From assembly GCA_010405405.1 (NCBI GenBank), contig MU004231.1, positions 3,280,401 through 3,344,400 on the forward strand: 64,000 nucleotides of DNA, written 5' to 3'. Under the pieces are notes generated by a model that searched no databases, had not been told where the DNA came from, and saw nothing but the letters and a program-made list of their open reading frames with translations. The translations under genes were made by a program, and so were the position numbers. Positions 23,301 through 61,650 of the stretch are shown here, one piece after another (the first letter of the stretch is position 1; every line of letters starts with the position of its first letter). The stretch comes from Microthyrium microscopicum. Its lineage: Eukaryota.

Positions 23301-23397
23301 ACCAACAAGCCAATCCCAACAAACGTCTACCAGCAATCACTCAGAACTCCCAATCATACCAAAACCACATTCGCCACCTTCCTCACCCACAAATTCC

Positions 23398-23664
23398 ATG
23401 TCTTCTTCCATCATGGGTTCTCAACCACATCCATCCGCCGCCCCATCAGGCTTTGACGACCAAGGACAATACGAAAACACCGTCGCTGCCCAAGAAGACT
23501 TTGCAACCCACTGCAACAATCTCCAACATCCAGACGCTGCCATGTCAGAGTACGCCAAGTACATGCTCGCTCACACCAAGCGACAAATGGACCAAGCAGT
23601 CAATGTTGCTCGCTCGCGATCGTCGAGTACCGACCTTACAAGCGTCAGCTCAACTTCATCATGA
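23398..23664 (+). CDS. Small fungal protein (88 aa), unknown function
   Basis: C/A-rich leader, coding-like codon usage and the helical motif AMSEYAKYMLAHTKRQM, which resembles a recurrent filamentous-ascomycete small-protein motif (from memory, not searched). Confidence 0.7.
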   Translation: MSSSIMGSQPHPSAAPSGFDDQGQYENTVAAQEDFATHCNNLQHPDAAMSEYAKYMLAHTKRQMDQAVNVARSRSSSTDLTSVSSTSS

Positions 23665-24715: not shown

Positions 24716-27700
24716 CTACAACACAACCTGCTTAACCTCGTCTTTCGCAGCCAACGTAGCTTCGCCCGCCTGTACTGCATGCGTTTCCTGAATCGCCTGC
24801 GAACCGCTACTCTCTGCCTCAGCCGGAACTACTTTCTGCTCCTTATCTCTCTCCTTGTCCACAACAACACCCCTTCGTTCCCCAAAGTTATGCAACCGTT
24901 CACCAATCAAATACACCTCATCTCTTATACGTCCGCGCCATCTACCAACCGCGCGGCCAAGCACGTAAACTAGCCAGAGGTTTAACGCACCTGCCAACGC
25001 TGCTGGATATGCCATACGCAGGACTTTCTTCTGCTCCTCGTCTAGGTCCCACCCTCCTGTTGTCTTCATCATAAGCGCCAACGAAGCTGCCGGCACTAGT
25101 GGAAGCGCACCTAGCAGTGAAAAAGCGAGGATGGCTGGTAATATGATAGCGCGGGTGGCTAGACGGGCATCAGGCGCCAGAATGCCATTACGCATAAGGG
25201 CAACGAGAAGGCGGTGTGGCGCGGAGTTTGGTGGCGCGGCGAGGATGAAATGTGATACTATGCGGAGGTAGAGTAGGCCAAGGGTCCAGTCTTGAATAAG
25301 GTTGATAAAGTGTGGTGATGCGGTAGGTACGAGGGTAGAGTGTAAAGGTGCGAGGATGTAGAGTTCAAGGAGAATGGCGAGAAGGATGGGAAGACCAATG
25401 GCTATCGTGGTGTAGACGTACAGAGTGGAGAGTACGCGGGCGGAAAAGCGCAAGATGATGTAGAGCGTGGAGAGATGGATAGAAGCACGGGCGAGTGTGC
25501 TGCGAGCGAAAGATGTGATCTTTGGGAGATGAATGGCGGTATATATTATGCCGCCCATAAAGTAAATGCCGAGGGAGAAGGCGTAGATGTCGTTGGGTTT
25601 CGTGGGGGCTGGCATCCAGATGGAGAAGAGGAAGCGGCCCAAGAGGAGAGGGAGAATGGTAATAGATATGCCAGTGACGGCGGCGAATATCCAGATTGCT
25701 AGGACAAAGATGCCGATGCGAGTCTTGAACCATGGCGGGATGTAGACGAGAGTGACTAGTGGAGAGTTTTTGTTGTGGAGACCCTCGTCGGCTTCTCCGT
25801 CTAGGCGATTGTTGTCCTTGTCAACTTCCAAGAATACTGGAGCTCCCTTAGGTATCCTAATCTGATCCGAAGCTGGTACTCTCGCATATCGACCGTCCGG
25901 TATCCAATCAGAGGTGGAATCAGTTAAATCAGCTGCAACGCTGGAAGCACTTGATGGCCGACCAGTAGATGCTTCGACTGCTTCATTACTGGGCTCGACT
26001 GCTTCTTTGCTGGGTTCGACTACGTCGCTACCGGTTTCGACTGTTACGCTGCTAGCTTCGACTGCCTCATCACTCGTCTCTTCATCCAAAGGTTGGGGGG
26101 TGACCTTCCTGTCAGTCCCGCGAATCCATTCCAGCCAAGTCAGATCAGGGTAATATCCTTCTTCATCCTCGTGGCGTTCATTGAACAGAAAATTGGAGAG
26201 CCTCAGAGCTCTTGCACACCGTCTAAACCACCACTGGTACATGGCATGCAATCCATCAGTAGGTTTTGTGTACCGTACAACGAAAGGAGTAAGAAAGTTG
26301 AAGAACAGTATATCCAGCGGAAACTCTCTCTCGGATTCGCTCGACGACCAGTGAATTGGTAGGACGTTACTTGAGCCTGCGCCAAGGCTCCATACCACAC
26401 CGCCCAGACAGACAACAATCAACGTGCCATATACGACTGCACTAAAGGCGATCTTTCGGAGTTGAACGGTGACTGGGCGTTCCAACACATCTCTAACTGG
26501 ATGGAAAGTCGGATCGTCTGGATCGCGGATGAAGTAGAGAACGCCATTACGCATTATCTTACGACACATGGATACGAATAGTGCAAAGTGGAACATATAA
26601 CATGTACCCACGAACCAATGCACAAATCCAGATATCCAAGGAGAATTGTAAGTAAAGGATAACCGGCTGCTGATGCTGGAGTTTTCGAATAGTGGAAGTA
26701 GAGCCAGGTCTAGAAGGAAGCCACAGAACAGAGGGAATGCAATCATTTCAATGCTAATGATGAAAATGACTTTGCAAACACCGCCTGCTTGTTTGATGAC
26801 TTCCACAAGAGCAAGTTCGAAGCGTTTTGACTTGGTGGAAGTTGTGATGGGAGCGAGATATGCCACGTAAAATGCTGCAGCCAAAGCAACAACTGCATAT
26901 CCTACCAGTATTGTAATAGCTCGGTCTTTGGCACTCCAGTATGCTAAAGTCTTGTCTGCGATCGGAATAGGTTCTCCCAGTGAGAATGATATGGTTCCAG
27001 TCTTGAAAATGCTTTCTAGACCGGTAAGTATGGTTTGAAGGTATTGTTTTGCGGCATTCCATAGCCATACTGGTGTCGTAGTCAAAAGATTGATGGTTTC
27101 TGTCATCTGGATATCGCTAATGGAAAGCCTGTTGAGTGAACGAAGTTGTGAGGCAATAAATCGGAAGACCCAAAAGAACCAATCTTTGAAATTGACAAGA
27201 GTAGCATGGGAAGACAAGGACATTTCCAGAGTTGCTGAAGAATCCACAACGGCGACTCCAAAAGATTTGACCGAGCCCAAGAGTCTGTCACCCGCCCGAA
27301 GTGCTACGCCTTTCAGTGGCTCCTGACTACCATCCCTCAGAAAGAGTAACAGTTTAGATGCGTAGTATGAGATCAGGCCTCCGTTGAACAGAAGAAAATC
27401 TCCAAGAAAATCCGCTACCGAGGAAACGAATTGAAGTGGTACAAACCAGATGAGCATGGGATTGCCCAGGAAGAACAACTCTAATTTTCCTAGCATGTAC
27501 GGAGCTTGTACGATGCCCATGATGGTTGCTGTTATCAACAAAGCGCTGAAAATGGCGTTTTGGAACAGACCGATGAGAGGACCTTGCATACCGATCAGTT
27601 CGAGAATACCTTCCAGATCTTCTGCATCATCAGCTGCATCGGCGTCATTGGCTTCGTCTTCTAAGGCATCCATGATAGCATCATTGCCCACGGGAGGCGG

Positions 27701-29476
27701 TAAATTTTGAGCTGGAAGGACGGGTTGGGCGTCAGCAAATGGCACAAATGGTTCCTCGTCAGCCAAATCGCGAACAACATGTTCATCGTTTCGATCGGAC
27801 TCATCATCAGTGTCTGGAGGAGGTGTAATGTCACCCCAGAACCAATGCAACCAAGCTCCAAGCCGGCCACGTTCTGCTTCTAATCTTGCATTCTGCTGAT
27901 TTAATTCATCCGGAGTAGGCAATGCCGGACCAAAGATTGGGCCTTGATCTAGATCATCAACACCCAGATCTGTCGTTTGAGGTTCCGTTGCATTCACGAC
28001 ATGTAATGGGGCGTCTTCCATCGCAGCTATGGGTTCCTCTTCCGCTTGGACTTGAGGCTCTGAGCCAATTGCGGTAGGTAATGCCTCGGATTCTGAAAGT
28101 GACTCATGTGGAACGTTCTGAGAGGCAACAGGCGCAGTATCCGAGCTTGGATGTTCGTCTTCTGGGCCAGCATGGGCCGGCTCCTTCCCCTTTGCTGACA
28201 CTGCGGAGTCATCAGCATGTATGTACGGATTCTGATGCAATGGAGAGTCGGGACTATCTGGTCGCCAGATCATTCGTTGAGTTCCGGGCCACTCAGGAGC
28301 GGGAACCGCCGCTGGAACAAGTGCGGCGTCAGATTCGTTGGTTTCCTGCTCTTGCGAAAAAACACCTGTTGGTTCTGGATCTTGAATATCATCCAACGAT
28401 GGTAAGCCACCAGCGTCTGATGTATTCGGAGCTTCGGAGCCGTCAGATGGCTGACTAGGCGGCGTGGGAACTGGAATCTCGTCGTCACTACTGGTATCAT
28501 CAAGATCGTCTTCCAGCTGCGGGCCACTATCGTCACTCTCCCAATCCAAGTCGACATGATCCAGTTCGTTATTTATTCGTTGAAGTGCATCAAAAGCAGG
28601 AGGCATTCCATTATTGGCATCCGCGTCCATTCCAAGCATAGGTTGTTGCTGTATTACCCACTCTCTGATGAGGAAGACCAGAATAAAGGCAATCACGACA
28701 CAGAGAGTGATCATTAAACCTTCCAAGATGTCCATAACTGATCGATTGAATGCGGCGGATGAGGTGAGCTCTCTGAAAAAGCGAACGTCAGAGAGAACCG
28801 AGCTGTATTTCTGGCGTATCAATTGATGAGCAGTATTGTTGGAAGTCGAATTGGTATTCATTGCAATATAAAGCTCACGCTCGGAGGAGACAGTGGCTCC
28901 TATGACGAGAGATTTGAAGATGCGATAGAAAAGGGGCGCTGCCGTGGTGTCGGTATTGTTACTACGCGAGGATCTAAAGGTTGGTAGAGTCCATGCCGAG
29001 GAGTTGGCTACGGTAGCTGGTGGTAATGAGGATGACCATGTTGATTCGATTTCAAAGGTACGAGCCCATCCAGAGTCGGCCATCCAGAACAGAAAGCGCC
29101 AGCTACTGCGCATAGCCCAAGGAAGGAAGACCAGCCATACGGAGAAGACTAAGACTGCTCTGAAATATAAGGCTATCTGGGAGAGGAAATGCATGGCAGC
29201 GCGACGAAAGAATACACCGGTAGGTAGGCTGCGGGGCATATGAGGATGGTAGAGTTTGGTGAAGCGAAATGGTGTTTTGCAGAGTTCGCAGTATTTCTTT
29301 TGGGAGTGTGATAGCCATTCCATCAAGCAGTCTTGGTGGACGTACTTGATGCTTCCGCTACATTTGCATGGATAGAATAGAGGTTCTTCCTTGGAGCCCT
29401 CGCCGCGACATATTCGACATGTATCCGGGTCGACCGAGTCGGGGAGGACAGCGGATTGGGCGTCTACGGAAGACAT
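24716..29476 (-). CDS. DOA10: ERAD E3 ubiquitin ligase Doa10/Ssm4 (MARCH6), 1586 aa, single exon
   Basis: N-terminal RING-CH CRICRGEG...PLFYPCKCSGSIKYVHQDCLMEWL...CELC, TD-domain FIRDPDDPTFHPVRDVLER, many TM helices and C-terminal IRDEVYLIGERLHN. Confidence 0.97.
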   Translation of the reverse strand: MSSVDAQSAVLPDSVDPDTCRICRGEGSKEEPLFYPCKCSGSIKYVHQDCLMEWLSHSQKKYCELCKTPFRFTKLYHPHMPRSLPTGVFFRRAAMHFLSQIALYFRAVLVFSVWLVFLPWAMRSSWRFLFWMADSGWARTFEIESTWSSSLPPATVANSSAWTLPTFRSSRSNNTDTTAAPLFYRIFKSLVIGATVSSERELYIAMNTNSTSNNTAHQLIRQKYSSVLSDVRFFRELTSSAAFNRSVMDILEGLMITLCVVIAFILVFLIREWVIQQQPMLGMDADANNGMPPAFDALQRINNELDHVDLDWESDDSGPQLEDDLDDTSSDDEIPVPTPPSQPSDGSEAPNTSDAGGLPSLDDIQDPEPTGVFSQEQETNESDAALVPAAVPAPEWPGTQRMIWRPDSPDSPLHQNPYIHADDSAVSAKGKEPAHAGPEDEHPSSDTAPVASQNVPHESLSESEALPTAIGSEPQVQAEEEPIAAMEDAPLHVVNATEPQTTDLGVDDLDQGPIFGPALPTPDELNQQNARLEAERGRLGAWLHWFWGDITPPPDTDDESDRNDEHVVRDLADEEPFVPFADAQPVLPAQNLPPPVGNDAIMDALEDEANDADAADDAEDLEGILELIGMQGPLIGLFQNAIFSALLITATIMGIVQAPYMLGKLELFFLGNPMLIWFVPLQFVSSVADFLGDFLLFNGGLISYYASKLLLFLRDGSQEPLKGVALRAGDRLLGSVKSFGVAVVDSSATLEMSLSSHATLVNFKDWFFWVFRFIASQLRSLNRLSISDIQMTETINLLTTTPVWLWNAAKQYLQTILTGLESIFKTGTISFSLGEPIPIADKTLAYWSAKDRAITILVGYAVVALAAAFYVAYLAPITTSTKSKRFELALVEVIKQAGGVCKVIFIISIEMIAFPLFCGFLLDLALLPLFENSSISSRLSFTYNSPWISGFVHWFVGTCYMFHFALFVSMCRKIMRNGVLYFIRDPDDPTFHPVRDVLERPVTVQLRKIAFSAVVYGTLIVVCLGGVVWSLGAGSSNVLPIHWSSSESEREFPLDILFFNFLTPFVVRYTKPTDGLHAMYQWWFRRCARALRLSNFLFNERHEDEEGYYPDLTWLEWIRGTDRKVTPQPLDEETSDEAVEASSVTVETGSDVVEPSKEAVEPSNEAVEASTGRPSSASSVAADLTDSTSDWIPDGRYARVPASDQIRIPKGAPVFLEVDKDNNRLDGEADEGLHNKNSPLVTLVYIPPWFKTRIGIFVLAIWIFAAVTGISITILPLLLGRFLFSIWMPAPTKPNDIYAFSLGIYFMGGIIYTAIHLPKITSFARSTLARASIHLSTLYIILRFSARVLSTLYVYTTIAIGLPILLAILLELYILAPLHSTLVPTASPHFINLIQDWTLGLLYLRIVSHFILAAPPNSAPHRLLVALMRNGILAPDARLATRAIILPAILAFSLLGALPLVPAASLALMMKTTGGWDLDEEQKKVLRMAYPAALAGALNLWLVYVLGRAVGRWRGRIRDEVYLIGERLHNFGERRGVVVDKERDKEQKVVPAEAESSGSQAIQETHAVQAGEATLAAKDEVKQVVL

Positions 29477-30302
29477 TGTGAGGATGGAAAGGAGGAATGT
29501 GTTACATGAGCGAGATGGAGGAAAAGTTGCGGACTAGTGGGCCATTGATGGTTGTATTTGAAGAGATCAAGTGTTGGTCGGCTGGCTATGGTAGTGGGAA
29601 TAGCATGGCAGGCGTTTGCGGGAGCCAAGCGTGTTGGGCGCAAAGAAGCACGGGGAATGAAAGGATATGCGCAAGTGGTGGAGTGGAGGCTTTGAGGAGA
29701 TATTGTTCAAGAAGTGAAGATGTTGATATAGAAGTTGGAGATAGGCTAGAAGTGGTATGTGGTGATGCCCGTGGGTATGAAAACGCCACATGCATGTACC
29801 GGAGGTAGTTGCGACCGACAGCTTAAAATGTAGACAAGGCAAGAGCAAGGCAACGACTGGCAAGTGCAATGGACAAAAGGTGCAGGTACAATGCAGATAA
29901 AGGTAGGAACGATCTATCGATGAGCAGGCGCGTCCCAGTGTGTCCAGTTGAACCTTCCCTGCTTATAATTTAGAGGTAGTGATTGGCTTCTGACGCGATG
30001 GACAATTTTGGTACGCGAATCTGGACCAGTCGTTCTTTCCCCAGCCGTGCCAACCTCTTGCTCCAGTTAAAAAAAAAACCAGCGAGTATCAAAGGCCAAG
30101 GCGCGTAAATCTTTTCATCTTTTTATTCCATCTATTCTATTCTTTATTTACGCGTCAATGTTTATACTTGTCGTCCTTACTACCAAGACCTGCTCTACAC
30201 CTTGACAGTTGACAATTACTAGTTCGACAGGCCTTTCTCTTGGCTTGCATGTGCCTTCCTTGTACACGCCAGTAGCCAGTAGCCAGTAGCCTGATCTTTT
30301 CT

Positions 30303-30310
30303 TGACGTCA
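30303..30310. promoter_or_regulatory. Perfect CRE/ATF palindrome TGACGTCA in the DOA10 / KDEL-protein divergent promoter
   Basis: Exact bZIP consensus site about 350 bp upstream of the ATG at 30657. Function is untested. Confidence 0.35.
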
Positions 30311-30656
30311 GTCATCCTAACCTCTCCAACCAAGACTCTCCGTCCCTGCAGTCCCAGTTCACTGCACCAAGCAAGACTCTGGCAACACTCAACACCAACA
30401 ACTTCCCCAACTTCCTCTCTCCAACACCATCACCACTATCCATCTCTCCCCCTCTCCTGCTTCTCCCCGCCAGCTCCACACATGCTGTCCTTGGTCTCGA
30501 ATCCACTCCCATCTGTGTCAAAACCCCTACAACACAATCAACAACCTTAAACCCCACTTCGTCCTACCCTATCTCTCGCTATCGCCAACAAACAGAGCGT
30601 CAACACTCTACCTTTTTCCTCAACCTGCACACCCGTTTTCCGACAGCACCATATCC

Positions 30657-33600
30657 ATGGACGCCGATACGGCTCCTGCTGTCCATGCTAATGGCAGTGC
30701 CCTTGACAAGCCTGCCCAAAACGGCCATGTCGTACCTTCCAAGAAATCTCTTTTAAGAAAGAAGAAAAAGTCAAGCTTCATATCTAGACTTTCCTCAAAC
30801 TCTCTAAGGTGAGTTCACCGGCTTGTATATCTGTTTGATACTAACAGGTCAATTAGAATTATCCTTTGGTCAACAATCCTTTACGTTGTATTCCGATGTC
30901 CTAGCGATTCAAACGATCAATCTTCATTGGTCTGCAAGCAGTATTCCGATCTTCGATCACGCCTCACTCCTCATATCGAGCCCCATTATAATTCATATGT
31001 CAAGCCATATGTCGACAAGGCCGAACCACATATCCAGCGATTCCAACAACAAGTTTACACTCCAACATCAGACTATGTCCTGAAGAATTATAACACCTAT
31101 GCCGCACCCAAAGTCATTCAAGTCCAGCAATACACTTCTTCGGAATGGGAGGGCACTGTTCAACCAAAATTATTGGCAGGGCAAAAGTGGGCGTACACTC
31201 AGTACGATCAAAATCTTGCTCCACATGTTTCCAAAGTCACTCATTTATCGGCACCCTATGTCACCAAGATCCAGGACGAACTTTCCGAGGTTTATGATCG
31301 TACTTTGATCCCATGGTATCAAAAGGCACAGCCATATGCTCAGCGTGTGTACACTGATACCCACTATGTTGCAACAGAGCTGGTTCTGCCTCATGTTCAA
31401 CGAGCTAGTACAACCACAACGTCTGTCTTCTATCGCAAGATTTGGCCGACCCTGGTCATTCTTTATGGTGAAAATGTCGAACCTCAGATCACTAGAATCA
31501 TTGAGAGACTTGGTCGCTACAAAGACTCTAGAAAACTGCAGGCTGCAGTTGAAATTGACGATCTTTCTGCCTCCATTACCTCTGTGGTAGCAAGCGCTTC
31601 GTCTGCTGCTTCATCATCCTCTGTCTCTTTGAGCTCGCCAGATTCGGCTGTCACATCTACCCCAAATGACTCAACCCGCGCTGAGAACGAAGCTTCTGTT
31701 CGTGAACAAATCGAGTCCGATCTTAAGCGATGGCAGGAAAAATTTGCCAAAGCAGCTGACAAGGGAGCTGAGGATCTCAAGGAGCGCGTTTCTGAAATTA
31801 CAGCTCGTCAAATCAACTCTCAAGCACATGGCGTGGGCAAAGCACTTGTAGTACAGCTCGACAACACAGTAAACACGTCATTCCGAGACCTTAAGACTTC
31901 CATCAACAACTCTATTGCCAAGCTACCAACTGATGCTCCCGAAGATGAAGAGAAAGAGGTTCGAACATCACTCGAAGATCGCATTCGATCCACTGGTGAC
32001 CAGATTCGTACCAAAGCTGTTGCAGTGCGCTCATGGAAACAAAATTACGACAACGAGACGCAACAGCTAATAGGTTCTGCTCTCGATTCGACCCTTGACG
32101 TAATCGACAATATTCGCGAACTTGGACTTCAGGAAATTGGCCTTCGTTGGGCTTCCCTCGAAGGCGTCACATACAAGGACTGGTCCAAGTATCGGGACCT
32201 TAAGCAGAGTTTCGACGAATGGCGTCAAGGTGTCGAGGCAGTTGCTCTGAAACATGATGGCATCCGAGCAGCTCAAGACGAGGGCAATGCAGTTCAAGAG
32301 CAAGCAATGGAACTCGTGGGTAATGCTGCCAAAGAACTCAAGCGCTTGAAAGGTGTTGTTGAATGGAAGATTGCCGCCCACGACTCCTCAGACGACTTTA
32401 GTACTCGAGTGGTTCCTCCAAAGGCAGCCAAGGTCGTCAAGGAGGCTTATTCTACTGCAAAAGAAAGCTTGAAGAGCGTGGTAGGACAAGAAACCTCCGA
32501 ATCTGGTGTGCTTGATAGTGCTACTTCAAAAGCACATGACGTTGTCGGTAGCATCAAAGCCGCCCCGTCATCCGTGTCAAGCGCCTTTTCAGATGACTCG
32601 AAATCTATACAGTCAAAGGTCGACGAAGCTATCTCAGTTGCCAGCTCGAGTTCAATCCCGCCAAAGGTTTGGGGAGGAGCTGCCGCAGCTTTCGTTGAGG
32701 CTCGAGAGGTTGTCTTGGATGACGATATAGAATATGAATGGTCGGATCAGATCCACAGTATTCTCGACGCTGCCGCCGATAAAGGCTCTGACCTCCGAAA
32801 CGCCTTGTCCAGCGCCATTTTCAGACCTACTCCTACTCAAGGAGCCGTGGAATCTCTCAGATCAGTGGGTAATGAACAGTATGCTCGTGGTCTATCTGCT
32901 GCTTCCAGTGTTTTGTATGGAACTCCTCAAGCGGCAACTGCGAGTTTGTCCAGTGTAGCAGCCGACAAGCTAGCGGCAGCTGTCACAGCGTAAGTCGGTT
33001 CGCATCGAATTCTGAGATTTCAACTAACAACCTTTAGTGCCTCTTATGCTATCTACGGAACCCCCGCGCCAATACATGAATCGATTGCATCTCAAGCTGT
33101 CTCTGGATACAGTACTGCAGCAACTCAAGCTCAGAATGCTCTTTCCTCCGTTTCAGCAGCTGCCTCCAGTCGACTGGCGGAAAGCCTTAGCGGGGTGTCC
33201 GAGCAATATACCAAGGCTAGACTTGCTGTTGGTTTACAACCTCCACCTCTACACAAACAGTATCTTACAGCTGCCGAACTCAAGTACTATGAGGGCATTG
33301 GACGAGCACATGAGCAGTACAGTCGCTTTGTTGATGCGGCATCCACGGCTGTTTATGGAACACCAACACCATACTATCAGCAAAAGGCAAGTGAGGTCTC
33401 AGCCAACATCCTTGGGACACCCTCCCCAGCTTACCAGAGTATGCTCTCCGTTGCTACAAACCAATACAGCGACGCGGTATCTACCGCAAAGGCCAAGTTG
33501 GCCGATATTCAGGCTTCTGCAAGCTCCATGATGGGCATGAGCAGCGATTCTCCTGGCAAGAAAATGCTCGCTTCAGCTTCTTCTGAATATGATGCTGCCT

Positions 33601-34538
33601 TTACAGTTGCTTCCAACGGACTAGCGAGCGCAGCATCAGTTGCACGTGAAAAGATATATGGCACCGAGCCTGGAGTCGCCAAATCGCTTGCTTCAGCTGC
33701 CAGTGAACAAGTTTGGGGTACAGAACCTGCATGGAACGAAGCTTTAGCTGCCAAGGCATCGTCAAACTTCAACGATCTCATTGCTAAAGCTAGCTCGCAA
33801 ATATATGGCACTCCCACACCTGTGGCCCAATCTGTGTGGAGCCAGGCCAACGATTATGCTGCGCAAGCAACTGAAGCTGCCGCATCTCACTATGACGCCG
33901 TGCGCGCCATTGTCTCCGAGCTTGTCGTCGGAAAGGAGCCCGACTTTACAGAAAGTGTCATGGCCCGATTCAGCGATGCTTACTATACCGGTTTTGGCGC
34001 TGCGGCTGCTTCAGCCTCCAGCATTGCAAGCGAGGGTGCTGCTTCGGCATCTAGCTTTGCTGGGGAGGCATATGGCTCGGCGTCTAGTGTGGCCAGCGTG
34101 GCATATGATTCGGCATCGTCTGTGGCTGCCGCCATCTTCACACCACCTGCCGCCCTCGAAGGAATATTTGACACTGCCAATTCTCAGTTCCAAGCAGTTG
34201 CGGATGCTGCAAGCATCAAAATCTACGGAACTGAGCCATCGTATCTCGAGGCTGCCCAAAGCAGTGTTTCAGCCGCAGCCTCAAGTGCCCAAAACGCTGC
34301 GAGCGTGGCTATCTTCGGCACACCGACTGGGGTAGCAGAAGCAGCGGCGAGCTCGGTGGCAAGCGTCGCTAGTGCTGCATCTGTGGCAGCATGGGGTCCT
34401 GAGCAGAGCTCTTGGGAAAGCGTTTCCAGCAGAATCGCCGTCGCAGCGGCCAGTGCCAGTGCAAGTCTGGTTAGTGCGGTGGATGCAGCCCGCGAAACGG
34501 TACAGAGTGCTGTTGGAGGTGCCAAGGATGAATTGTAA
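30657..34538 (+). CDS. Large ER membrane protein with N-terminal TM, coiled coils, Ala/Ser-rich YGTP repeats and C-terminal KDEL (She10/Osw7-related Pezizomycotina family); introns 30809-30856 and 32990-33037
   Basis: Splicing gives a basic patch, then TM IILWSTILYVVFRCP...LVCK, then ELGLQEIGLRWASLEGVTYKDWSKY, then the repeat region, ending GGAKDEL*. Family assignment is from motif memory. Confidence 0.8.
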
Positions 34539-35154
34539 TTTCATCAACAACGTTGAAGGAATAGACTTGATTGAATATTGAAAGTCTATGGCATCAAAAA
34601 GTAGAAGCAAAGACTGAACAAAAAGACACACATACGACCACGTTAGGGCGATCTTTACAGACACGATCACTCCCATATACTACTTACTTTTCATGAAACA
34701 TTCTACACGACATACACGACGACGTGCTCAGGCGAAAAATTGTACAGTCAAGAAGGAGGGACATGTTCCAACTATGGCTTACAGACATCTCACGATGGGC
34801 CTTTTTTCTTCTTTTGCTTTTTTTTTTTACCAAACTCATGCGATACCCACTTCCGTTCGTTCAGTGCCTGCCTTTTTATTGTTCTGTTGTCGCGCTTGTT
34901 TTGACCGCTTGTTCTGTCTATGATCTTTAGGTTTGAGGCTGCGATGGGCAAAGACTGTGTATGTGCATTATTCCCCCTTTTTCTTGTGTTTATTCGGATC
35001 TTGGACCTGTGATTATGATGGGCGTTGTACGAATAATTGTTTATAGTGTGGAATTGAAAGATTGATCCGAGTTAATACACTGTGCTTCTGTGACTGATTG
35101 TGATATTACTTGGTTCTTCGGGGACAATATAAGTGAACCGTTTCGACGACTATT

Positions 35155-35287
35155 CCTGTCGATGCCGATGGCTGCCGTAAGATTTCTTAAAGGGTGACTG
35201 CTTTAACTACCATCGTCTTCGATGATCTGCTGGGAAGTAAAGCAGTCGCTCTTTAAGAAGTGCTATGGCAGCCATCGTATCGATAGG
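35155..35287 (+). ncRNA. Candidate structured hairpin RNA (long imperfect inverted repeat, milRNA-precursor-like)
   Basis: Arms 35155-35205 and 35238-35287 form 48 pairs (42 Watson-Crick + 6 G.U) with one 2x2 internal loop and one bulge. The inverted repeat is certain; the RNA function is inferred. Confidence 0.5.
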
Positions 35288-35392
35288 GTCTCCTTCTAAA
35301 CTGCTCACTTATTTTGTTTGCAGAGAGGGGCACGTTTGTGGGTTCGTAGGCTTCGTGAGCTTCGTGGGGATTGGGAATGGCAGGTTATGATT

Positions 35393-35456
35393 GTCGATTG
35401 GCATGGATGACGATTGATATGGATGTCGATTGGTATGGATGTCGGTTGGTATGGAT
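35393..35456. repeat. Tandem repeat, 4 x 16 bp (consensus GTCGATTGGTATGGAT)
   Basis: Units read directly: gtcgattggcatggat, gacgattgatatggat, gtcgattggtatggat, gtcggttggtatggat. Confidence 0.9.
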
Positions 35457-38400
35457 GGGCTTGTAGGATGAACTTGTGCTCGAGTAGATTGTGAGTCTGC
35501 ATACATTGAATCTGTGATTATGTGGTTGAGTGCTCCCAAGCTTTCTTCGCTGTCATGAACGATGTTGGTCTTAGAGACTGAAGTCTTGAGCGGCTGGTGG
35601 CCTATACGGTTTCAAGGCCTCTTGCCTCTCCATGAACTCAATCCTAAATGGTGACTGCCACAAATCTCATCGATCTTTGTTTTTGCTTCTAACCCGAACC
35701 TAGAGGCTTGCTATCACGGGGTCTTTCAGTGATGGCTCGACCTCACAGCAACGGCTAGGCAACGTTTGATAGTGCCAATGGAAGACATAGAGTACCGGCT
35801 CGACTGCCGTGCCGTAACTTTACGAGCCCAATAAATCATCTGGTATGTGTGTCTAAATTGTACATTGTACACATAGTTCGGTTGCGCCGAATGAATGACA
35901 GTGTTCGGACTTCGGTAAGCAGTTGCTCGCCGCAATCGATCGAAGATTAGGAAGGAGGTTCGATGGAAAGACCGAGTTATATTGTTCGGAAATTGATCCA
36001 GCGTACTTCATTACTTCATACCGAGCCTATTAGCGGTGAGATGACTGGGCATTCGCATTGGTTTCCTCAAAGCCTCGACATCTTTCGCTATAGAACCAGC
36101 GATTGTCTGGAAAAGGAAGCTCGATAGAAGCGGACATGGAAGCAAACGTCTATAGAGATGATCGATCGAAGGTTCTTGTCGTGACTGGGGCCGTTACTAG
36201 GAATTAGATGACCACTGAACCAAGAAAACCATTTCGTCCATGATCTATTGTGCCGCTCAGGTTTGAAAACCTTACGCATGGGATTCCGCGACAGGAAGTT
36301 GGATTCGCATTCAAATGAATTAGAAAAAGATCAGGAGAAATCTTCCATTTATGATATACTAGAACCGACCTTTTTAACACTAAACCATCTACCAGGCGAA
36401 GGTAATTCATCTACTTACAACCACTACGCTCATCATCGACCCTCGAGGGAATGAATGGCGCTATTCCACGGTCTCCCTCAAGGGCCTTCGAAACACCACC
36501 ACGATCCTAATCTTAATGGCTCACGATCCCGAGCAAACACTCAAGTCTTCCTCGAGGGTTGAATAGCTACCCTCCAGGCTCTGTCTACCCTCCAGGCTCC
36601 CTCGTAGACCCCTATCGAAACTCCCTCGCCCATTCAATATCGATATATCGCCTCCATGGCAAAGTCCAAGAGCCCCCTATTCAAGCGAGCTCACCGGCTG
36701 GCACAGCCAAACCGCTAATCTGAAAAGTCTGAGCACATTAGACAACTGTCTCACTTCGACACTGCCTCCCACGGGAGCGAACTCGCCAGACTCTGATCGT
36801 AATCGAAAGATTAGAGGCAACAAGCACATGTCAAGCGGCAAAGGTAAATTTGCGCGAAAAGGCCCAGCGAGGCGAAGTTGTGCCGCCTAGCTGCAAACAA
36901 CAGGCCAGTGATCATGACCCCTAGCTGATACACAAGTGCATCGATCCCTCCAGGGAGCTCGAGAATGTCAAAATCTTCCGAAGTGAAGAAAATAACAGGG
37001 GGTGATGCCAGGTTCCCAGCCTCCTTTTTTTGCATCTTCATGGGGTCCCGGCCAACCAAAAACAATGAAATCGTCCGTCAGCAGGGCTTTGGTAGATAAA
37101 TTCAATTCAACAGTGTTCCTTGTTCTTAACGGTATAACGTGTACATACAAGCATGCTCGTGGTTTCTTTGGTGGCCCGCTCATGCCGCTGTAAGTACCCC
37201 TGACGCGCAACATCACCCACGAGGTTGACGTGACCAGGACGAGGATTCTTGCAGAGGCCTGTGGATGTTATTCTTCTCATCATTGTGCTCGGGGTTGTCA
37301 CTTCTTTGGGACAGAAGAACTGTCTAGTGTTGTGTATCATCAGGCCATCGGTGGACGGATCGAGCGCTCCGGATCATGGGTTGCGCAGACTGCCCTGGAA
37401 CGCAGCTAAGAATGGGCTTCGTCTCGAGAATCTTGCTTATCGAGACTCAGCTGGGTATCTGTTTGCGGTCGAGGATGGGGCGATTCGTGATCTAGAGGGT
37501 GCGATTCGCGGAAATGGGAATATGCTCATGAGGTAAAGGATTGGCCGGTGAAACGACAACGCAAAGCTATGAGCCAGAGTAATGGGATTCTCATGCTGTG
37601 ATGCAATGATTCTATAGCCTCGATGATCTATGGAGTTAGTTCTTACTCGCTACGAATGCTCATCTGTTCTGACCTTCTATCACAGTTTGGATACTCGGGA
37701 AGACGCCCCAGATGCCGACCCCATCACCACTTTCAAACTCTCCTCAGCAATATCGCGATGGACCAGCTTGCTCCCTCACAGCCTGGTCGTCGCGAATCTT
37801 GCTACAAACCTCCTTATTTCCAAGGGACCCTAATCACCTCTCATAGTTGTTGCGCACCCTGACCCATATCAGATTCCAAACAGGCCCAGCATCGACGGCC
37901 CTCGTCGCCAAAACCCATGAGCTCCAGGCTCCCTTAACAATGACAAGGAGTTTAATCAGCCCTCCCCGTCTGCTTCGCCGCAATTCCCGGTTCGCCCTAT
38001 AACGCCCGTCCGATGCTCTGTCCTACATTGGCTACAATCCGTCCAAGGCGAAACAGAACCGCGAGAAGCATCGCACGGCTTGCCGCGAGATAAAGGAGGG
38101 AAGAAAACGCTGGGTGTGGCACAAAGAGAGCAGCTGGTCCAGGCTCTGTTTACGAAGGGAATATGCATCGCGATGGTCGAGATCAGACGACAGCGGTTTG
38201 TTCAAACGAGCTAAGGTAATGCTGGAGGGTCGGTGGCGGCTCACATCCCAAGTAATTCTCCGAAAAAGGTCTCACTGGCATGAGGAGATGGAGAAGTCTG
38301 CCTATGTCGAATTACCATTGACCATTTAGGAGATTGAGGCATTCATGGCCCGATGGATGCGATGCGGGCATCACATGATTCGTGTTCGTGCGACGGCAAT

Positions 38401-41400
38401 GTGATTACCAACAATTGGAGAGTGGAGTTATCGTCATCCTCTGGCTAACTTTACGCTGTGTGATGGGCATAGTGAACAGTGATTGAAGTAGCTATTCCAG
38501 AAATCTGGAAGCGAGGAGAACATGGTTCGTATCCCATGCTCTGTCGTAGAACCTGGCTATTTTCCGAGTTGCGGATTCCGGAAACTTGGAGTTTGTCAAT
38601 GCCATTGTATTTACCGATTATCAGTAATCTCCTTTTTCTTTGGTTTCCGCATAGGACAAGTCTCAGTACGATGTTACACAGTCAACGTTCTCCAGAAGTG
38701 TGTTTGGCTCACAGGGGTGATACAACAGATCATAGAACGCCAAAGACGATAACCTGATGACTCGTACTCCAAACAAGCGGAATGTTTATGGACACATTTT
38801 GACGCGTATATTGCACATAGTCAGCGCTACCAAATAAGCTAAATAATGTAAGTTTAGGTCAAGATATGATATCAAAATACCTTTTTCTAAGCCCCTGTAG
38901 TGAACGTACCACTGTTGGCTACCAAGAAGACAATATTGTAGTTTCACAGTTTCCGATATCCCCGGAGCTTTCTTAGTGACTTGGGACGTAATCTCACCTC
39001 AATCAGTACGCGCCATAGGATCGGTTGTTTAGTGTATACGGATGAACTGTCGCAATACGTTATCTTCAACACTTCGCCGCAAACGTCGTCAGCTGATGGT
39101 GCTTTTTGTCGAAACCATCTTCAACCAGACTTCCGCGGGAAGCGGACATGGACTGTTCCGGAACTCTTGATAGTCCTTGGCCAGATAGGGCCACTGGCAT
39201 GCTGGGCATCAATATAGACATATTAAGAAGCGGTATTATAGCCCAAAATTGCATGGGCCGAGGAGCCATGCTGCATAATGATTACCCTATTGGACAGGCG
39301 TCGCGGCGATCAGGTTCAAATGGTGCGTGAATTTCGGTACAAATGAGTCGGGCTCTTCAAACGAGATTGTGGAGCGGTTTTGCCATTGCCTGACTGCGGC
39401 TTTCTGGCAACTTTGAGTGCCGATATTGTTTCTTGTATGATTTGTGTTCAAAGCGAGAGAGAATTGAATGGGAGATTGAATGTCGTTTGGACAAGATTTG
39501 ATCCCCTGGTACTTTGTGAACGCCAGATGGCAAGGGGCTGCCCCGGCTTGCAGTTACCCCTTCGCCATGCTTCTCTTCACATCCTCGAGCGGCATCGGCT
39601 GCTGCCGGTTGAGATTGAAAGCTCATGGTCATTCAAAATAGCTGTAGCATTGCAAGCCCAATGCCAGGACCCTTGTTAACATTAAGGCTGGTATATCCAT
39701 TGGGCGTTTCCCAGCCTCACTTAGGCCAGAGGAGGCCTAACAGAAGGCATAAGCCGTGCTGAAGAACTTTCTCTAGTTTACATCAAGGCTTAGCTGAAAT
39801 GATAACGTCGCATGAGATTGCGGAGCGCGAAAGGCTTTGAATCAGTCCAACGGACTGGTCGAGTGTCGAATTGCGTAGTATATGCATGCCGAGTTGCTGT
39901 CATCACGAATAATCTGATCATCATCGGATTTGCAGGTGCCTAGAAGGGCCTAGAGATGATATGATGAGTAGATTTGCGTTTCTTCTTACTATTTCTGGTA
40001 GTGAGCTGTCAGCTGCGTGTCAAACACGTTGAAATAGGTATAGAAGCATGGTTGCCCTTGTCAATTACAAAACCGGCCGCCACTTTGGGCAAATCAGACA
40101 TGTTATTTTCGATTGATTGTTCCTTCTGACACGGTGGATTGGGTCCAAAAGCTATCTCGGTTAGAATATGCTCATATGCGGTGAGAGTTTGAGAAAACTT
40201 GGGGCAATAATACCTTATGGCCAAGGCGACCTCGGATTATCCACTCACGTTTCGTGTACTCGTTCCTAGTAGCTGTACTTGTCAATCACGTGAAGTTTGT
40301 GGAGGAGCTTCTGGGATTATTTATCGAGATCTGGCTTCTACGATGTAAACAGGCATATCATCCAAGAACCGAGATTTCGTCCTGGTTTGCGGACGCCAGC
40401 ATCGTAACCCTCAAGGAATGAAGCCGGGAGACATGGTGGGCACAGAGGCAGACCAAGGGCGTTGTGAGACACCCAGCTTTCCAGAACTTGGGCTCCTTGG
40501 GGCAGCAGAATGCTGTTTCTCATCGCCTTTGGGATCACAAACATGGGACGCCCAACGTCTTCGTTCGCGCTTCGCCTAAACGAAAACTGGGTTGACAGAA
40601 AAATTGAACAAGATGCCAAGAGATTCGGTCCTTTAGACGCGTCTCGTACAAACTTGGAGATAGTTTGCGGCGTTTGCAGAACCTGTGCAAAGTATAGAAC
40701 GCCTAACATCAACCCCATTCACAAATCACAGGGGTTTAAACGCTCGGTGATCACAAAGCCGTGTGAATTGGCGTTGAAGGCTGCACATGCGAGAGAGAAG
40801 AGCTGAAGATGCGGTAAGGATTGTCCTATGGAAGCTTAGATTTTGGTTTCTAGAAGACGCCACGTCCTGTTATAGCAGCCACTGCAATCTCGACTATTTC
40901 TACATTTCAACTTCAGACGTAAATTATCAAACAGATGGCGGGCTCTAACAAGTCGAAAGTCGCGCCTTTGGAACTACATTTTTGTGATCAACCACAAATC
41001 TCCGACAAGATAATACATGGCGTTGTTAAGATGTTGATTGATTTGCAGAGCCTGTTTTGCGCTGGGTAGGCGTCCTGTGGTTCAGAAAATGATGAGACGA
41101 AGTTGGGTTGGCCACGCGAGAGCGAGAGCGAGGGGGATCAAGCCGCCATCCTAGATCGCGTTCAACAATCTGTCAAAATCAATAAAATTCCACGTGCATG
41201 CTATCTCTGGTTGGATATTCTGGTCTATCAAGCAGTTTTAGGATCAGTAATGTGAGATGCAACTTCAAGTATCCCCAACGGCGTAACTTGCACAGGAAAA
41301 GCCGATCCATTCGCCAGCCAATCTTACGCTCCGAACGCCAGCCTCGTGCCCTCATTAAACCTCCCCTATCCCTGCTCTTAACACGCTCTGTTATCCTTGA

Positions 41401-44400
41401 GCGCACGAGGCGGGCGTTACTACTGCACGTTCCAACTCGCCAGCACACAGACCAATCATCCCCTCATTTACCTTTGGACCCGAAGAGGAAAGGTCTCCGT
41501 GGGGAATTGAACGGAGTGGCTTACGCTTACGCACCGCTAGCACACAAAAGGATACTTATCCGGCGCCTTGCCATGCGGCTCTCTTGAAGCGGAAATGCTT
41601 GGCAGCCTTGCTGCAGCGCTGCTGCAATGCACTTGGTGATGTGAATCCTACCGTTGGCTCGCGAAGGAATATTATCTGCGGGCGGGGCGGAGGCGAATGC
41701 TGGCTCAGCCTCGTCGTTGTTTGAGATATAGAACCGTTTGACGTACAAATGCTACATACTACTGAGGAAATGACCTGATTGAGGAGGTTACACGGGAGGT
41801 TGGTGCATAGATATCGCCATTGAACGATACTATTGGCTTGCTAATGTGAGGACTGTGGTAATGAATGTACATACGGCAGAGTATTTTATGTGTGCTTAGA
41901 TGCTACAACAATCAATACTCTAAAATACTGCATCATCTGATTCGCGTAAAAATTTCAAGGTGGCAGATACTAGCCTGAGTGCGAAAAGGTGACCATATAA
42001 TCTTACAACTTGGGCCAATTATTGAGCCGCAAGAAATGAATTTCTCAAACTAGTTGGAGATTTATCTTTTTGATGTCACATTTTAAGCATGTCTCGGAAG
42101 AAATTATGCCTAGAGAAATGAGATGAACGATTCAAACCTGATCACGTCTGTATTGGTTCGCCTACCAATTGCCATCCTTGACCCTGACTTTTACGATCGT
42201 GGTCGCTTTGCATGAAAAGTTGAGATCGAGACGGCAGAGCAAAATTACAGGCACTGAGCGGTATCGCTCCAACAGACGAGAAACATAGGCCGTCAATTGC
42301 AAGCTGAGATTGATGAGATCGACCTCTCGTCACATCACAGGAGACAAATCGAGAGGTCGAGAACAACCAACAAGATCTAATTGCATAGCACTGACTGGCC
42401 ATGCTTTTTTGATATGCTTGACTTTGCATTCAACTATAGCGACTCTATCCACAACAAGGTTAAGGATAAAGAAATAGAGTAGAAATCATATGTTTCCATT
42501 GAAAGTGGCGCGGGACGTTGATTTTGACTCTTGCTTTATGTGACAGGGAAAGCATGTACCTTCTTTTTTTCCGAAAAGGGCTGGATATAATTGGCTACAC
42601 GCAAGAATGACAGGCACATGGCAAGGAATGACAGCTCTTCATGGGGTCTGACACGCCAACCAATCTTATGAGGCAAACCGTAGTTTGATTGACAGTGCTG
42701 GTTCTTGCGTTCAGGAGGCCAAAGTTGGCCTGTCGGGTCCATTCCAGATCTTGCTGACTCTGATTTGACAAGTTTTACTTGCACCGAAGAAGAGCTTTTC
42801 GGGCTGTGCTGGCAAAATGATCTCATGCAGGATTGCCCGTTCTTATGCACAAAGGCGCAGATGAAAAACCTGACCTATCAAATCGCCAAAAGGTTCTCAA
42901 ACTGCCCCACTGTTTTAGTGAGAGGGTGTGCTGGTGGGTCATCTACTACAATCCAAGCCAGTTGATTCATTAATTGTAGATGATAGAGGATAAGAAGATA
43001 TTCGTTCTTTCATAAAACAGAAAAGTAGGTGTTGCGCCGACCCAATGATGTGGATCACTAAGTTCATGATTCAGCTATTTTTCGCCCTGATTTAATGGTG
43101 GTTCGAGAAAAGGCAGCATAATAAGTGCTCATTGGGCCGGGTGTTTCGAAACTTGTTTCAGAGCTATTTTGATGTTTTATTGGATATGTTAAGAAGATGG
43201 TATGTTTGCGCCCCAACATACGAAGGCGCGTGTATGTTGGTGGTCGACAACCACCATCAATAGGGCCGTACTTGTGGACTTATGGAGCGAGTGGCTACTC
43301 TCTGAAACACAGCGATAAGTTTATGGTCCGAGCAAATCGAATGCAGTAAAATATTTACGCGAAGAGACCTTGGCAAAGTGCTGCGGCAATTGTGTGGCAC
43401 GATTATTTGGTAGCGACTTACGCGTGAAGTTGTTAAACAGTTGCGGGATGAACCAATACTGTATACCGGATTGAACGATATACTGTTCTTTCTTTTGTTT
43501 GATATTGGAAAGTGTGGAAGAAAAATGGCAAAGCACTAACTGTGGCAACCGTTATAGAAAATAGCGCCGAACGATGTGTAATTGTATTTTTGAACATATC
43601 GCCACTCCAATCATAGAGCAGTTATGCTCGAGAGTCACGACGTGATCGCTGGCTTTATTACGATCCAATTTAAGACCCGGCATCTCGACAAGATAGGTAG
43701 GTTGGTAATGCACAGATACTTCTGACCTGTTGTGAAAGAATCTAAAGATTGGATCTGGATGGTGTCACCACGCCACAGTCATGAAAAGCTTCATTTTGAT
43801 AGATTCATCAAGTGTACTGGCCAGTTATGACTCTGATATCTGGGAGAAATCAAGACATGGAATTTGGTACGGTAGCTTGCAAAGCCAAGTGCGATGCTGG
43901 CACTGCTCGGCTTCGCTCCGTGAATCCCTGCTAGGCGTGCTTTGGTCTGTACTTTTTGCAAGACTTGCAAGGTGCTCACACGCGGCGACCTTGTCCAAAG
44001 CAGTTGATCCATGGACCAGGCCACCAACGGGAGCCAACCATCCTGTCAACAACCCCGGCTATTGGCAGTTGAGATGCTGTCACTCATCGCGCTCGCTGTG
44101 CAGATTGGCACTCACAGCCGTTGCGCACCCGCAGCAGCAAACAGCCGCGGCAAGGGGTGATATCATGCCAAAAAGAAAGAGCACTTTTGAAGGAGAACAG
44201 GAGCAGCAGGAAAATCAAAACGAGTCGTCACTACGGTTTTGGTAGGAAACAAGCTCCGATGGCTGTTGCACACAGTTGCTCGTACCAAGTTTTCGAGCAC
44301 ATTTTTGTACGGTGCGAAAGCGGGGCTTCGGTTAGGCGAGTTGGGTGGGCGAAGCCGCCGAATGGATATCATACGGATAGCGGCAGTTTGTCGCATGCAT

Positions 44401-45779
44401 TGGCGTAGACAAACTACAACGCGAGAGTGAGATAATCAGAGTAAAATATGGACAGCAAGACTGAATTGTACGGCTTTACCCTCGGTAATATTTCATGTCG
44501 TAAAACTACTTTCAGGAAGGATGATTTATTTCGTTGAATTATTGATTGATTAGCAATTGGGAAAGAGAAACGGATGTCCAGGCTCAGCGTGACTACGCTC
44601 CGCCAGGCCCGAGCTCTTGACGCGACGCACGGGCCGCTGAAAGGTCCATGAATGGTCGTCGCTCTTGCCAAAGTTAGCTCAACGGTCACGGCAGCAGCGA
44701 TCACAGCATTTGAGTCTTGAGAAGCTTCGAAGCAGCAGTCGCAACGAAGAAAACGGAAGCGACGATTCATCAGCTACTGCCTAAAATAAAAGAGGGGCAT
44801 AGAGCTTGACTTCTACACCTTCAATTTCAACCATTCAAAACAGAATCACGTAAATAGTTTAATGCGTACCTTGAAAATTCATTGTGCTTCGTCATTTTCG
44901 AGTAGTCGCGCGGTCGCAATCGTCATCCTAGGATTATTCCGCCGCACCTTTTAGTTTCCAAATCCGCGCCCATCAAAATCCTGCTCCTCCTACCCCAGTA
45001 AAATACCATCCCCAAATTCATCTCAACTCCCATCAATTAACCTTTGGTCCCATCTCCTTCCCAGACTTGAAAGTCGACCTCCGCCGTGATCGCTTTCAGG
45101 CCGCCGGCTCGCCCGTGGTCATTCAAAACGCGCGCGCGCACAGAGACTTGTGCTCGGACCCGGTGGATGCATCAACAAGGCAATCAGGAAATTTGCGTCC
45201 TTGGTACAGACACGCCTCTCTGCTCGTCTCGTCTCGCCTCAGCACTGCTGCAGTCAAGCTCCGCCCAAGTGTCCGTCAATAATTGGCATATTGCAAGCTC
45301 GGACGGTATTTTATTACTGCGAAGGAGCTGTAGCATTTTACGGGTTCTCGCGTTCCCAGTGTTTCTCCTCCCACCCATCTTTCTCACTGGCAGGATCAAT
45401 CCCAGACTTGTCTTCTTCTCAACTTTTCCATTGCCATTATTGAATCACAAAGGCCGGCTGCGCGGTTGAATTAGATTGAACCCTTGCCTGTCAAGACTGT
45501 CAGAATACTCGTCCTTCCAATCTCTCGAACCTCGAGTGGTTGTGCCTCTGCCCTATCGCCGGCGCGTTGAACAGGTTGCGCTCTCACAGGCTGGCATCGC
45601 CGCAACCCTGTCCTTGACACGACGTGGAATTTTGGAAACGACGTCTTGACCCTGCAACGGCCACGGGCCTGGTCGCGACTTCCTTGCACTCCACACAGCA
45701 CCTAGCACGACTTGCACACGTTAAGTTTTTTGTTAGTCGTCGACGTCTGCCTGGCCTGTTACTTCTCTTCTTTGGAGAG

Positions 45780-45818
45780 CTCAAAACCTCAAAGCTCAAA
45801 GCTCAAAGCTCAAAGCTC
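45780..45818. repeat. Heptamer tandem repeat (CTCAAAG) x about 5
   Basis: ctcaaaa-c-ctcaaag-ctcaaag-ctcaaag-ctcaaag-ctc, upstream of a TATA-like TATTAAAA at about 46039. Confidence 0.85.
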
Positions 45819-46295
45819 CTTCTGCCTGGCACCTGCCTAGGGTGTCGGTCGAACCTGTCTACTTCAACGCCCTGGCCCCTGCCCCGTTAAGCCTGTTCAT
45901 AACAGCGACCGTTATTCCATCGTCCTTTGATCCTGCCTGTCCTGTCTCCGATCAATCATCTGCTCCTGCTATTTCTGCTCAGTGCTTGCTGCCAGTCTGA
46001 GTCTGAGTCTGAGCCTGCCCAGTACGTATTGCCAAAGGTATTAAAAGCCAATCCCAGGCCCCTGCGACCTGTCATCCTGGCCGTTCCCTGCCCTGCCACT
46101 ACTTGACTACTGCCCCTCATCATCACCTTGTCACCTCTTTACACTACAACACTGAACCTTGCGTACTGGATTAAAACACACCTTGACCTTGAACCTGGAC
46201 CATCATCACCAAAATCCCCCCGGCTCACGACACTCAATTTCGCTGCGCGCGCTCATTGCACTGACCTGCTCAGCGGTCCCTCGACCATATCCATC

Positions 46296-49200: not shown

Positions 49201-50337
49201 ACCAACAGATGTGAATGTGTTTCTATGACTCGTTATGGATTAAATTGAGGTTGCTAGTCTCTTTGAGAATTCTGGCGTTCTTGTACATTATTTCGTGAGG
49301 ATAATTTTTGGGCCCCATTCTTGTTAACGGCAGGAGATATCCACATTGTATTTGTTTGTTTTTATTGGTAAAAGTAACGACGTGCAAGCTAATTTCTTTT
49401 TTCTCTTGTTTAGCCGGAGCAGAATACAGTGCAGAGTCACAAACTCATCATCACCAAGCGCCAAATGGAAGCAACGGATCACCAAACGATGTTCGACAAG
49501 CTCAAAATTTCTACCCAAATTATCCCGCATCCTCCAACGGTATGGTAAGCTCAGTCGTACCGCCTACGGACGGTATAAGCCATCACGTAGCCGATTACAA
49601 GAACCATGTCATGACTTCATCGTCTTCATCGAAACACCAACAGGATGACGAGGAGACTACTACCAACAATGTGGCCCTTTTCGGTGATCTCCCCGAAGCA
49701 AAGCGACGCAAGTTCATTCTGGTCGACGATGCCCAGCGCGGTACACGAGTACGTGTTCGAGTTATGCTCGACCAGGTCCGCATGGCAGAAATGCCGGATT
49801 CATATCGCAAGAATAACTCTGTTTACCCACGCTCCTGGTTCGCAACAGAAATGCAGACTCCTCCTTCTTCTCCACGCCGAGGACGCTGGCCCGATGATGT
49901 GGAGGAAGTTGACATGGCGCCGGAGACAGCAGCGACTCGTACGCTCGTTCCAGTGCCGATGATGGATGGTTCGGAGACCAAGCTACCAGTACCGCGCATG
50001 ACGCGGACTAAACGTAGCAAGGAGGTGACGCTCAACGATCTTGGATATCGCATGAGCTGGAGCCAGAGTCGAGTCTTCTCAGGCCGTACTTTGTTCTTAC
50101 AGCGCTCTCGTAAGTTTTACTCGTGCTTCTCTAACAGAGAGTATAATGGGTTCTATATTCGAGTGAGTGAGAAGCTAACAATATCTGATAGTGGATGCCT
50201 ATCGCAACAAAATGCGTAGCACTATGGTGGCAGCTGGCCAAGACGTGGCATCTGTTGCACCACACTTTGAGACTCGTGTGGGCAAACGTAAGTGGATGGA
50301 GCGAGCAAAGAAGGCCAAGCGAGATCAATCTCCTTGA
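46296..50337 (+). CDS. Conserved fungal putative nuclear regulator with P/Q/H-rich N-terminus and two homologous domains; exons 47733-48027, 48145-49188, 49414-50109, 50192-50337 plus an uncertain first exon (46296-46376 or ATG-only 46860-46862)
   Basis: Conserved-looking block QDQNGVQWIAFEYSRDRVKMEYTIRCDVESV...NCVYPRA...LIQRAVDSWRN and a second copy NSVYPRS...FLQRSLDAYRN. Basic NLS-like ends (RSRRVRR, GKRKW...KKAKR). All listed introns are GT-AG with in-frame junctions. Confidence 0.85.
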
Positions 50338-61195: not shown

Positions 61196-61495
61196 AGCTT
61201 CGTGCTGTGTTTAGTGACGTATCGAATGGACTGCGAGGCGATCAAGCTATCATGATATGATCTTCAAGGTAAGCTGTATCCGCTCGGTGACATTGATCAA
61301 TCACTGTGGTGATACTCAATATACTGTATCGTGGCTAGGTGGTGCTTTTGGAATTGCCAAAGTTCCATTTTCATCAATGTCAGTTACAATGACTCGTCGC
61401 TCAGTGTAATGTCATTGGTTGCGACTGAACGAACTGGAGACGTGACATCCCTGCCCGCCAAATGGGGGCTGTTCAGGATAGCGGTGCCTGGAGTA

Positions 61496-61648: not shown

Positions 61649-61650
61649 TA

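Follow-up and report, generated by a model that had tools for sequence, protein, structure and literature searches.

Young MIR genes of plants and hpRNAs of Drosophila are born by inverted duplication. Fungal systems of interest for comparison include the Pol III milRNA genes milR-1 to milR-4 of Neurospora crassa, of which milR-1 combines TATA-like elements and a T tract with a precursor of ~170 nt (PMC3547838). According to Johnson et al. 2022 (PMC9757828), read evidence is required for a fungal milRNA, and the top-tier fungal hairpins are short and have small loops. Here we describe a hairpin within a 64-kb window, that is, a stretch of 64,000 nucleotides from the leaf-litter fungus Microthyrium microscopicum, and compare it with these systems. 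A Cdc37 exon encoded in the window matches the protein recorded for M. microscopicum at 100% identity, the nearest named relative reaching 64%.

Like milR-1 to milR-4 (PMC3547838), the locus is an intergenic stem-loop; its TATA-to-T-tract unit measures ~160 nt, close to the ~170 nt of pri-milR-1, and it combines a TATA-like element lacking a B box with fully paired arm windows that start with U. In contrast to milR-1, the T tract comprises just four T and is found 25 nt beyond the stem, and the likeness is one of layout. As for the three structural minimums set by Johnson et al. (PMC9757828), sequence alone reveals a duplex free of secondary (side) stems and large loops, which is the stem-loop test for fungal milRNAs, no Rfam structural RNA, and a distance of more than 100 nt from the coding sequence of the neighbouring gene, whose product ends in KDEL. 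On the other hand, a core of 48 bp, a loop of 32 nt and a basal arm set it apart from the top-tier hairpins of that set. M. microscopicum is absent from the parts of the PMC9757828 supplement that were searched, and one 10-nt motif of the arm is absent from its table S5. The core is 22 nt away from an ORF found in a protein database. The fold-back is long, G.U-rich in its core and looser at its base, as in young plant MIR genes and Drosophila hpRNAs, which differ in that for the present hairpin no source or target gene was found in the 64-kb window. Overall, it is reasonable to regard the hairpin as a candidate small-RNA locus of a known kind.

The core hairpin is part of a longer palindrome

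The preliminary description placed a hairpin at 35155..35287 with 48 of 50 columns paired, and both the coordinates and the count (42 Watson-Crick and 6 G.U pairs) proved correct; the stem additionally carries a 1-nt bulge at C35166. When both strands are folded, the minimum free energy (MFE) of this segment is -84.2 kcal/mol on the + strand and -63.2 on the - strand, corresponding to z -13.9 and z -10.5, and none of 200 shuffles is as stable on either strand. Among 1825 windows of 140 nt the hairpin ranks first in stability on the + strand and second on the - strand, and unbroken helices within it reach 24 bp on the former and 11 on the latter. The 5-bp stem CATCG-TCTT-CGATG that had been assigned to the loop exists in the sequence but does not form in the + strand MFE fold. 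Within the apical region, the weak symmetry down to 35212/35231 comprises 4 Watson-Crick columns, 2 transversions and 1 A.C. The 133 nt of 35155-35287 contain 7 CGAT/ATCG tetramers where 1.1 would be expected, an excess for which the symmetry is partly responsible. A direct repeat shared by the loop and the end of the right arm was considered and found not significant (402/5000 shuffles).

The limits of the hairpin as originally drawn are, however, too narrow, because the inverted repeat runs further out and measures ~200 nt as a whole (Table 1). Folding in context reveals an outer stem in which 20 of the 25 columns are Watson-Crick and whose register is shifted by one base relative to the core. 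Its five mismatches are four transversions and one A.C, with no G.U. At 6162 control positions the best in-register match is 18/25, and the alignment score of the outer arm is not reached by any of 2000 shuffles, although a looser control allowing any offset reaches it in 15 of 1244 cases. Taken over 87 columns, with two single-base indels excluded, the palindrome has 67 Watson-Crick pairs, 7 G.U, 4 A.C and 9 transversions, so that its arms are ~77% identical. The palindrome is real and was previously unreported, and it may have originated as an old inverted duplication.

Table 1. Features of the palindrome and its neighbourhood (positions within the 64-kb window)
Feature	Position	Strand	Remarks
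KDEL-ending gene, two long ORFs	30813..34538	+	3' end may reach the hairpin
Faint distal continuation	35114..35123 with 35318-35327	+	4 Watson-Crick, 4 G.U, 1 A.C, 1 transversion; boundary uncertain
Outer left arm	35124..35148	+	TATA-like TATAA at 35128
5' arm of core stem	35155..35205	+	11 bp, 1-nt bulge, 13 bp, 2x2 loop, 24-bp unbroken helix
Apical region, 32 nt	35206..35237	+	Weak symmetry on to 35212/35231; small internal stem 35211-35224
3' arm of core stem	35238..35287	+	Fully paired 22-nt windows starting with U at 35238, 35264, 35266
Outer right arm	35293..35317	+	T4 at 35312-35315; hexamer 35303-35308
65-aa orphan ORF P0123	35309..35506	-	C-rich, G-poor tract; possible 5' exon; coding status doubtful

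Genomic context

The gene upstream of the hairpin belongs to an Atlas cluster that is automatically named 'Transcription factor hoxa13 family protein' (score 0.96), presumably a misannotation of an ER protein. In the region 24716-34538 this KDEL gene (many YGTP-like repeats, last exon) stands head-to-head with a gene for a RINGv/MARCHF6 (Doa10-like) ligase. The hairpin opens a stretch of ~11 kb without a Pfam-supported ORF (34539-46295), and a Pfam scan of 16 ORFs between 35300 and 46000 gave no match. Downstream of the stretch, a multi-intron gene at ~46296-50300 encodes two domains flanked by low-complexity sequence and has no Pfam hit; the stretch has the look of a long control region such as might serve a developmental regulator. 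A palindrome of 8-10 bp occurs twice in it, at 36436-36600; the sequence downstream is common to the two copies, a short direct repeat is present as well, and the shuffle z of this segment is -3.8 on the minus strand. Elsewhere in the window, a strong C-rich leader (skew 0.84) at 23081-23660 precedes a short + strand ORF without a Pfam match.

The window harbours a MITE-like element at 61494-61650, which has perfect terminal inverted repeats of 41 bp, TA at both ends and a strand-symmetric fold. It is abutted by a fold-back element at 61649-62236, the TA being common to both; the arms of the latter are complementary at ~70% over some 230 bp, and its 28% GC and RIP-like indices suggest that RIP has acted in this genome. 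For the hairpin itself, inspection by eye gave no features matching a Helitron end, and Rfam gave none matching a riboswitch.

Mismatch spectrum and strand asymmetry

The six non-Watson-Crick pairs listed in the preliminary description are exactly those present in the paired columns of the core, and all are G.U on the + strand. The broader statement that every transition mismatch is a G.U does not hold, since the 2x2 internal loop, read in register, consists of A35180.C35263 and G35181.G35262, the first of which is a seventh transition and an A.C on the + strand. Because this pair makes the count 6/7, the probability of 1/32 once attached to the transitions falling on one strand becomes a two-sided P of 0.125. 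Moreover, the flanks are G+T-rich on the + strand (0.61 upstream and 0.67-0.70 downstream, with the 0.70 of 35288-35467 in the top 0.13% of windows), and under such local skew a heuristic product model gives P(>=6/7) of 0.13-0.71 by the flank chosen. The ratio of G.U to A.C across the whole element is 7:4 (P 0.55), or 11:5 (P 0.21) with the 10 distal columns; the full palindrome is without significant strand asymmetry.

The core nevertheless differs from the rest of the palindrome in the kind of mismatch that it tolerates. G.U accounts for 6/8 mismatches in the inner 50 columns and for 1/12 elsewhere, transversions for 1/8 and 8/12, respectively, whereas Watson-Crick identity is similar (84% in the core, 80% in the outer arm). 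Fisher's test for the G.U contrast gives P 0.004, or 0.038 when the 10 distal columns are counted, and a permutation that allows choice of the best 50-column window yields a scan-corrected P of 0.004-0.037; the contrast is post hoc, because the core is delimited by its own pairing. In neutral simulations with the observed transition share of 0.55, P is 0.021, 0.039 and 0.084 at no, moderate and strong skew, respectively; it rises to 0.06-0.25 at a transition share of 0.7 and to 0.15-0.53 at 0.85, and is 0.26-0.63, at its widest 0.04 to 0.95, if all transitions fall on one strand. The settings that we regard as plausible span P 0.02-0.25. The fold-back element at 61649-62236 has G.U at 11/36 and 15/67 mismatches, a lower share than in the core (Fisher P 0.04 and 0.005), and also leans to G.T on the + strand (11:4 and 15:10, neither significant), although it is an imperfect control because it is AT-rich and RIP-like. 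Collectively, the clustering of G.U pairs in the core speaks modestly, and not decisively, for selection on a + strand duplex. Of the selection on a + strand RNA duplex initially proposed, the strand-count argument fails (P 0.125; 7:4), while the clustering of G.U in the core leaves room for such selection to have acted.

A candidate small-RNA precursor

Our tentative preference is that the ~200-nt inverted duplication serves as a Dicer substrate of the milRNA/hpRNA type, with the core kept paired as + strand RNA. According to this model, the inner 48 bp of an old, locally single-copy inverted duplication of ~200 nt would be held paired as + strand RNA. A transcript over the hairpin, whether it stems from the KDEL gene as read-through or as a long 3' UTR or is short and independent, would fold into a 24-bp plus 24-bp duplex, from which Dicer would release RNAs of ~21-24 nt; taken up by Argonaute, these would repress mRNAs of other genomic loci. 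The palindrome, its fold and its mismatch spectrum are observed, whereas its origin by inverted duplication, the selection on the core and the use of the + strand are what we infer, and the hairpin could work like a milRNA locus. Each of the 177 windows of 21-23 nt along the arms leaves no more than 5 bases unpaired, the MFEI is 1.32, and fully paired 22-nt windows starting with U are found at 35183 and 35184 in addition to those in the 3' arm (Table 1).

Searches for related sequences and targets were negative within their scope. Rfam returned no match at the gathering score, and its best sub-threshold hit, to a generic miRNA model (32 bits vs 72), is uninformative because any long hairpin evokes such models; the hairpin region contains no tRNA. 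No putative target in the 64-kb window beats shuffled sequences (best 5.0; null median 5.5, range 3.5-6.5, 40 shuffles). GTDB genomes searched via the KDEL protein gave 38 pattern hits, none confirmed, and phage and plasmid collections contained no related DNA, all of these being non-fungal collections that are silent on fungal conservation. Among the literature matches listed for M. microscopicum, none is a small-RNA paper by its title.

With respect to transcription of the + strand, the TATA-like TATAA lies 27 nt before the core, and the T4 lies 25 nt after it. The joint pattern, sought post hoc, occurs at 0.12% of intergenic positions, and its two parts are not independent because both derive from one A/T-rich arm pair; the single mismatch T35128.T35313 yields both TATAA and T4 on the + strand. 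No Pol III B box is present on the + strand within 2 mismatches. The A-box pattern is too lax to inform, and a scan for bacterial promoters and terminators, which is not apt for a fungus, stayed at chance level. A far more specific scheme, which we regard as very unlikely, is that the milRNA gene is made wholly of one inverted duplication: selection would act on the duplex of the inner arms, and the outer arms would supply a TATA-type Pol III promoter (left) and the terminator (right). Such a gene would be antisense to a Pol II transcript with the hairpin in its intron, so that the palindrome would be read both ways. Outer arms acting as promoter and terminator would explain why pairing is kept only in the core.

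Alternative explanations

The milRNA reading is close in likelihood to a neutral one, a distinct possibility in which the palindrome has simply decayed. It might be a MITE or fold-back remnant lacking its ends or the product of template switching, with the G.T lean due to strand-biased mutation of the type seen in the flanks or to light deamination of one strand, and any small RNAs being incidental siRNA. Arms that differ by 9 transversions and 2 indels, a G.U:A.C ratio of only 7:4, the strong skew at 35288-35467 and the similar lean of the fold-back element are all in keeping with decay, yet it accounts poorly for the transversions, which are scarce in the core and dominant outside it. That template switching can create or homogenise inverted repeats is stated in 10.1101/2023.04.19.537475 and PMC13100816. 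A transposon origin gains from the window itself, where two of the three long inverted repeats are TA-flanked transposon-like elements, and the palindrome shares long inverted arms and a similar size with MITE and fold-back DNA transposons (61494-61650 and 61649-62236). Unlike the palindrome, however, these elements display TA target duplications, near-perfect termini, strand-symmetric energies (-91.5/-91.3) and RIP-like indices, and the palindrome is best matched in its middle, not at its ends. Furthermore, no second copy of it exists in the 64-kb window, and it has no clean terminus and, as the preliminary description had noted, no credible target site duplication (TSD), there being just chance repeats of 2-3 nt at the symmetric boundaries, although an old element could have lost one. 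As to deamination, the contexts of the putative C>T sites are mixed, as had been claimed (2 CpA, 2 CpG, 1 CpT and 1 CpC); four of the six are CpA/CpG, which would suit this explanation but is no enrichment (P 0.38). The RIP indices are ordinary and carry no RIP signature (TpA/ApT 0.9 vs 1.41 in the fold-back element; (CA+TG)/(AC+GT) 1.36 vs 0.8). For RIP confined to one strand, no usable paper was found. The main text of Haridas et al. (PMC7082219), in the passages covered, is without RIP or transcript data for M. microscopicum.

The remaining alternatives concern which transcript, if any, contains the hairpin. Minus-strand transcription, which we consider unlikely, would start from a Pol II site near 35530, and the first exon, C-rich and containing the 65-aa ORF, would end at a donor at 35308. 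The hairpin, with A.C mismatches, would then lie in an intron or 3' UTR of a transcript that overlaps the KDEL gene's 3' end in antisense, and would be a source of hairpin or natural-antisense siRNA. On the minus strand, 35324-35506 has C 0.38 and G 0.11 and thus resembles four of the five 5' regions that were sampled from the window, which have C 0.36-0.41 and G 0.09-0.14, unlike the eight sense 3' flanks (G 0.17-0.25 vs 0.38 here on the + strand). An excess of C over G marks fungal 5' ends (PMC555766), but fungal 3' ends are also G-biased on the coding strand (PMC3315797), so the base bias permits both strand readings. The ORF is present in a protein collection, and we infer that it is an annotated gene model, because no unspliced Cdc37 exon of this genome surfaced there; however, it has no homologue (the one hit among 2 candidates is itself), a pLDDT of 0.21, an ambiguous codon score and a 16-bp tandem repeat (35392-35457, 4.1 copies) that is out of triplet phase. 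The donor can be joined with a relaxed branch point and an acceptor at 34647, but the implied intron of ~690 nt is long, and the donor mirrors a + strand motif: the hexamer 35303-35308 reads as a branch point on the + strand and as a splice donor on the - strand, and one of the two readings is a mirror effect because the six bases are identical. The minus-strand fold is still stable (z -10.5), whereas the G.U-rich core is left unexplained by this reading. The C-rich, leader-like tract and the 65-aa ORF hint at minus-strand transcription, against the use of the + strand. Less probable again is that the structure acts in cis where the KDEL mRNA ends (as a 3' UTR element or a modulator of a poly(A) site or 3' UTR intron) and is no small-RNA precursor. 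The hairpin does lie 617 nt past the KDEL stop, in agreement with the ~600 nt first estimated, and on the strand of the better fold; an A-rich signal-like motif occurs at 35126-35132, and the + strand offers two donors (34959, 35177) as well as a branch point plus CAG (35303-35323). Under a stricter pattern the latter is the sole such site in 34540-35700 (background 0.2-0.7 per kb), but a relaxed pattern gives a second one, the branch point would sit hidden within the outer stem, and no Rfam cis-element matches. Finally, the size of ~190 nt, internal symmetry, G.U pairs and missing TSD recall introner-like elements and the Hypoxylaceae sister (stw)introns, as described in PMC8469720. A decayed symmetric element or sister intron of this kind, with a dead donor in the left-arm hexamer at 35133 and an acceptor at 35323, is largely refuted and highly improbable: the hexamer has no G at +5 and is a poor donor, the symmetry extends past it into the would-be exon, and the palindrome lies outside any known gene. 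Moreover, copies are absent from the window, and two surveys record zero introner families for M. microscopicum, and hence no multi-copy family, in the portions of their supplements covered (PMC9860276, and PMC12130899 except its files 13 and 14).

Implications

If the palindrome is neutral, it illustrates that, where the flanks are strand-skewed, a bias of G.U pairs to one strand makes a weak test in a selected part of a palindrome. If, instead, the tentatively preferred milRNA reading is true, a hairpin small-RNA locus would exist in the saprobic Microthyriales, a lineage missing from the curated fungal milRNA set, as far as the searched parts of PMC9757828 extend. Moreover, with the scar of the inverted duplication still visible, the locus would represent a direct example of the birth of a fungal milRNA gene.
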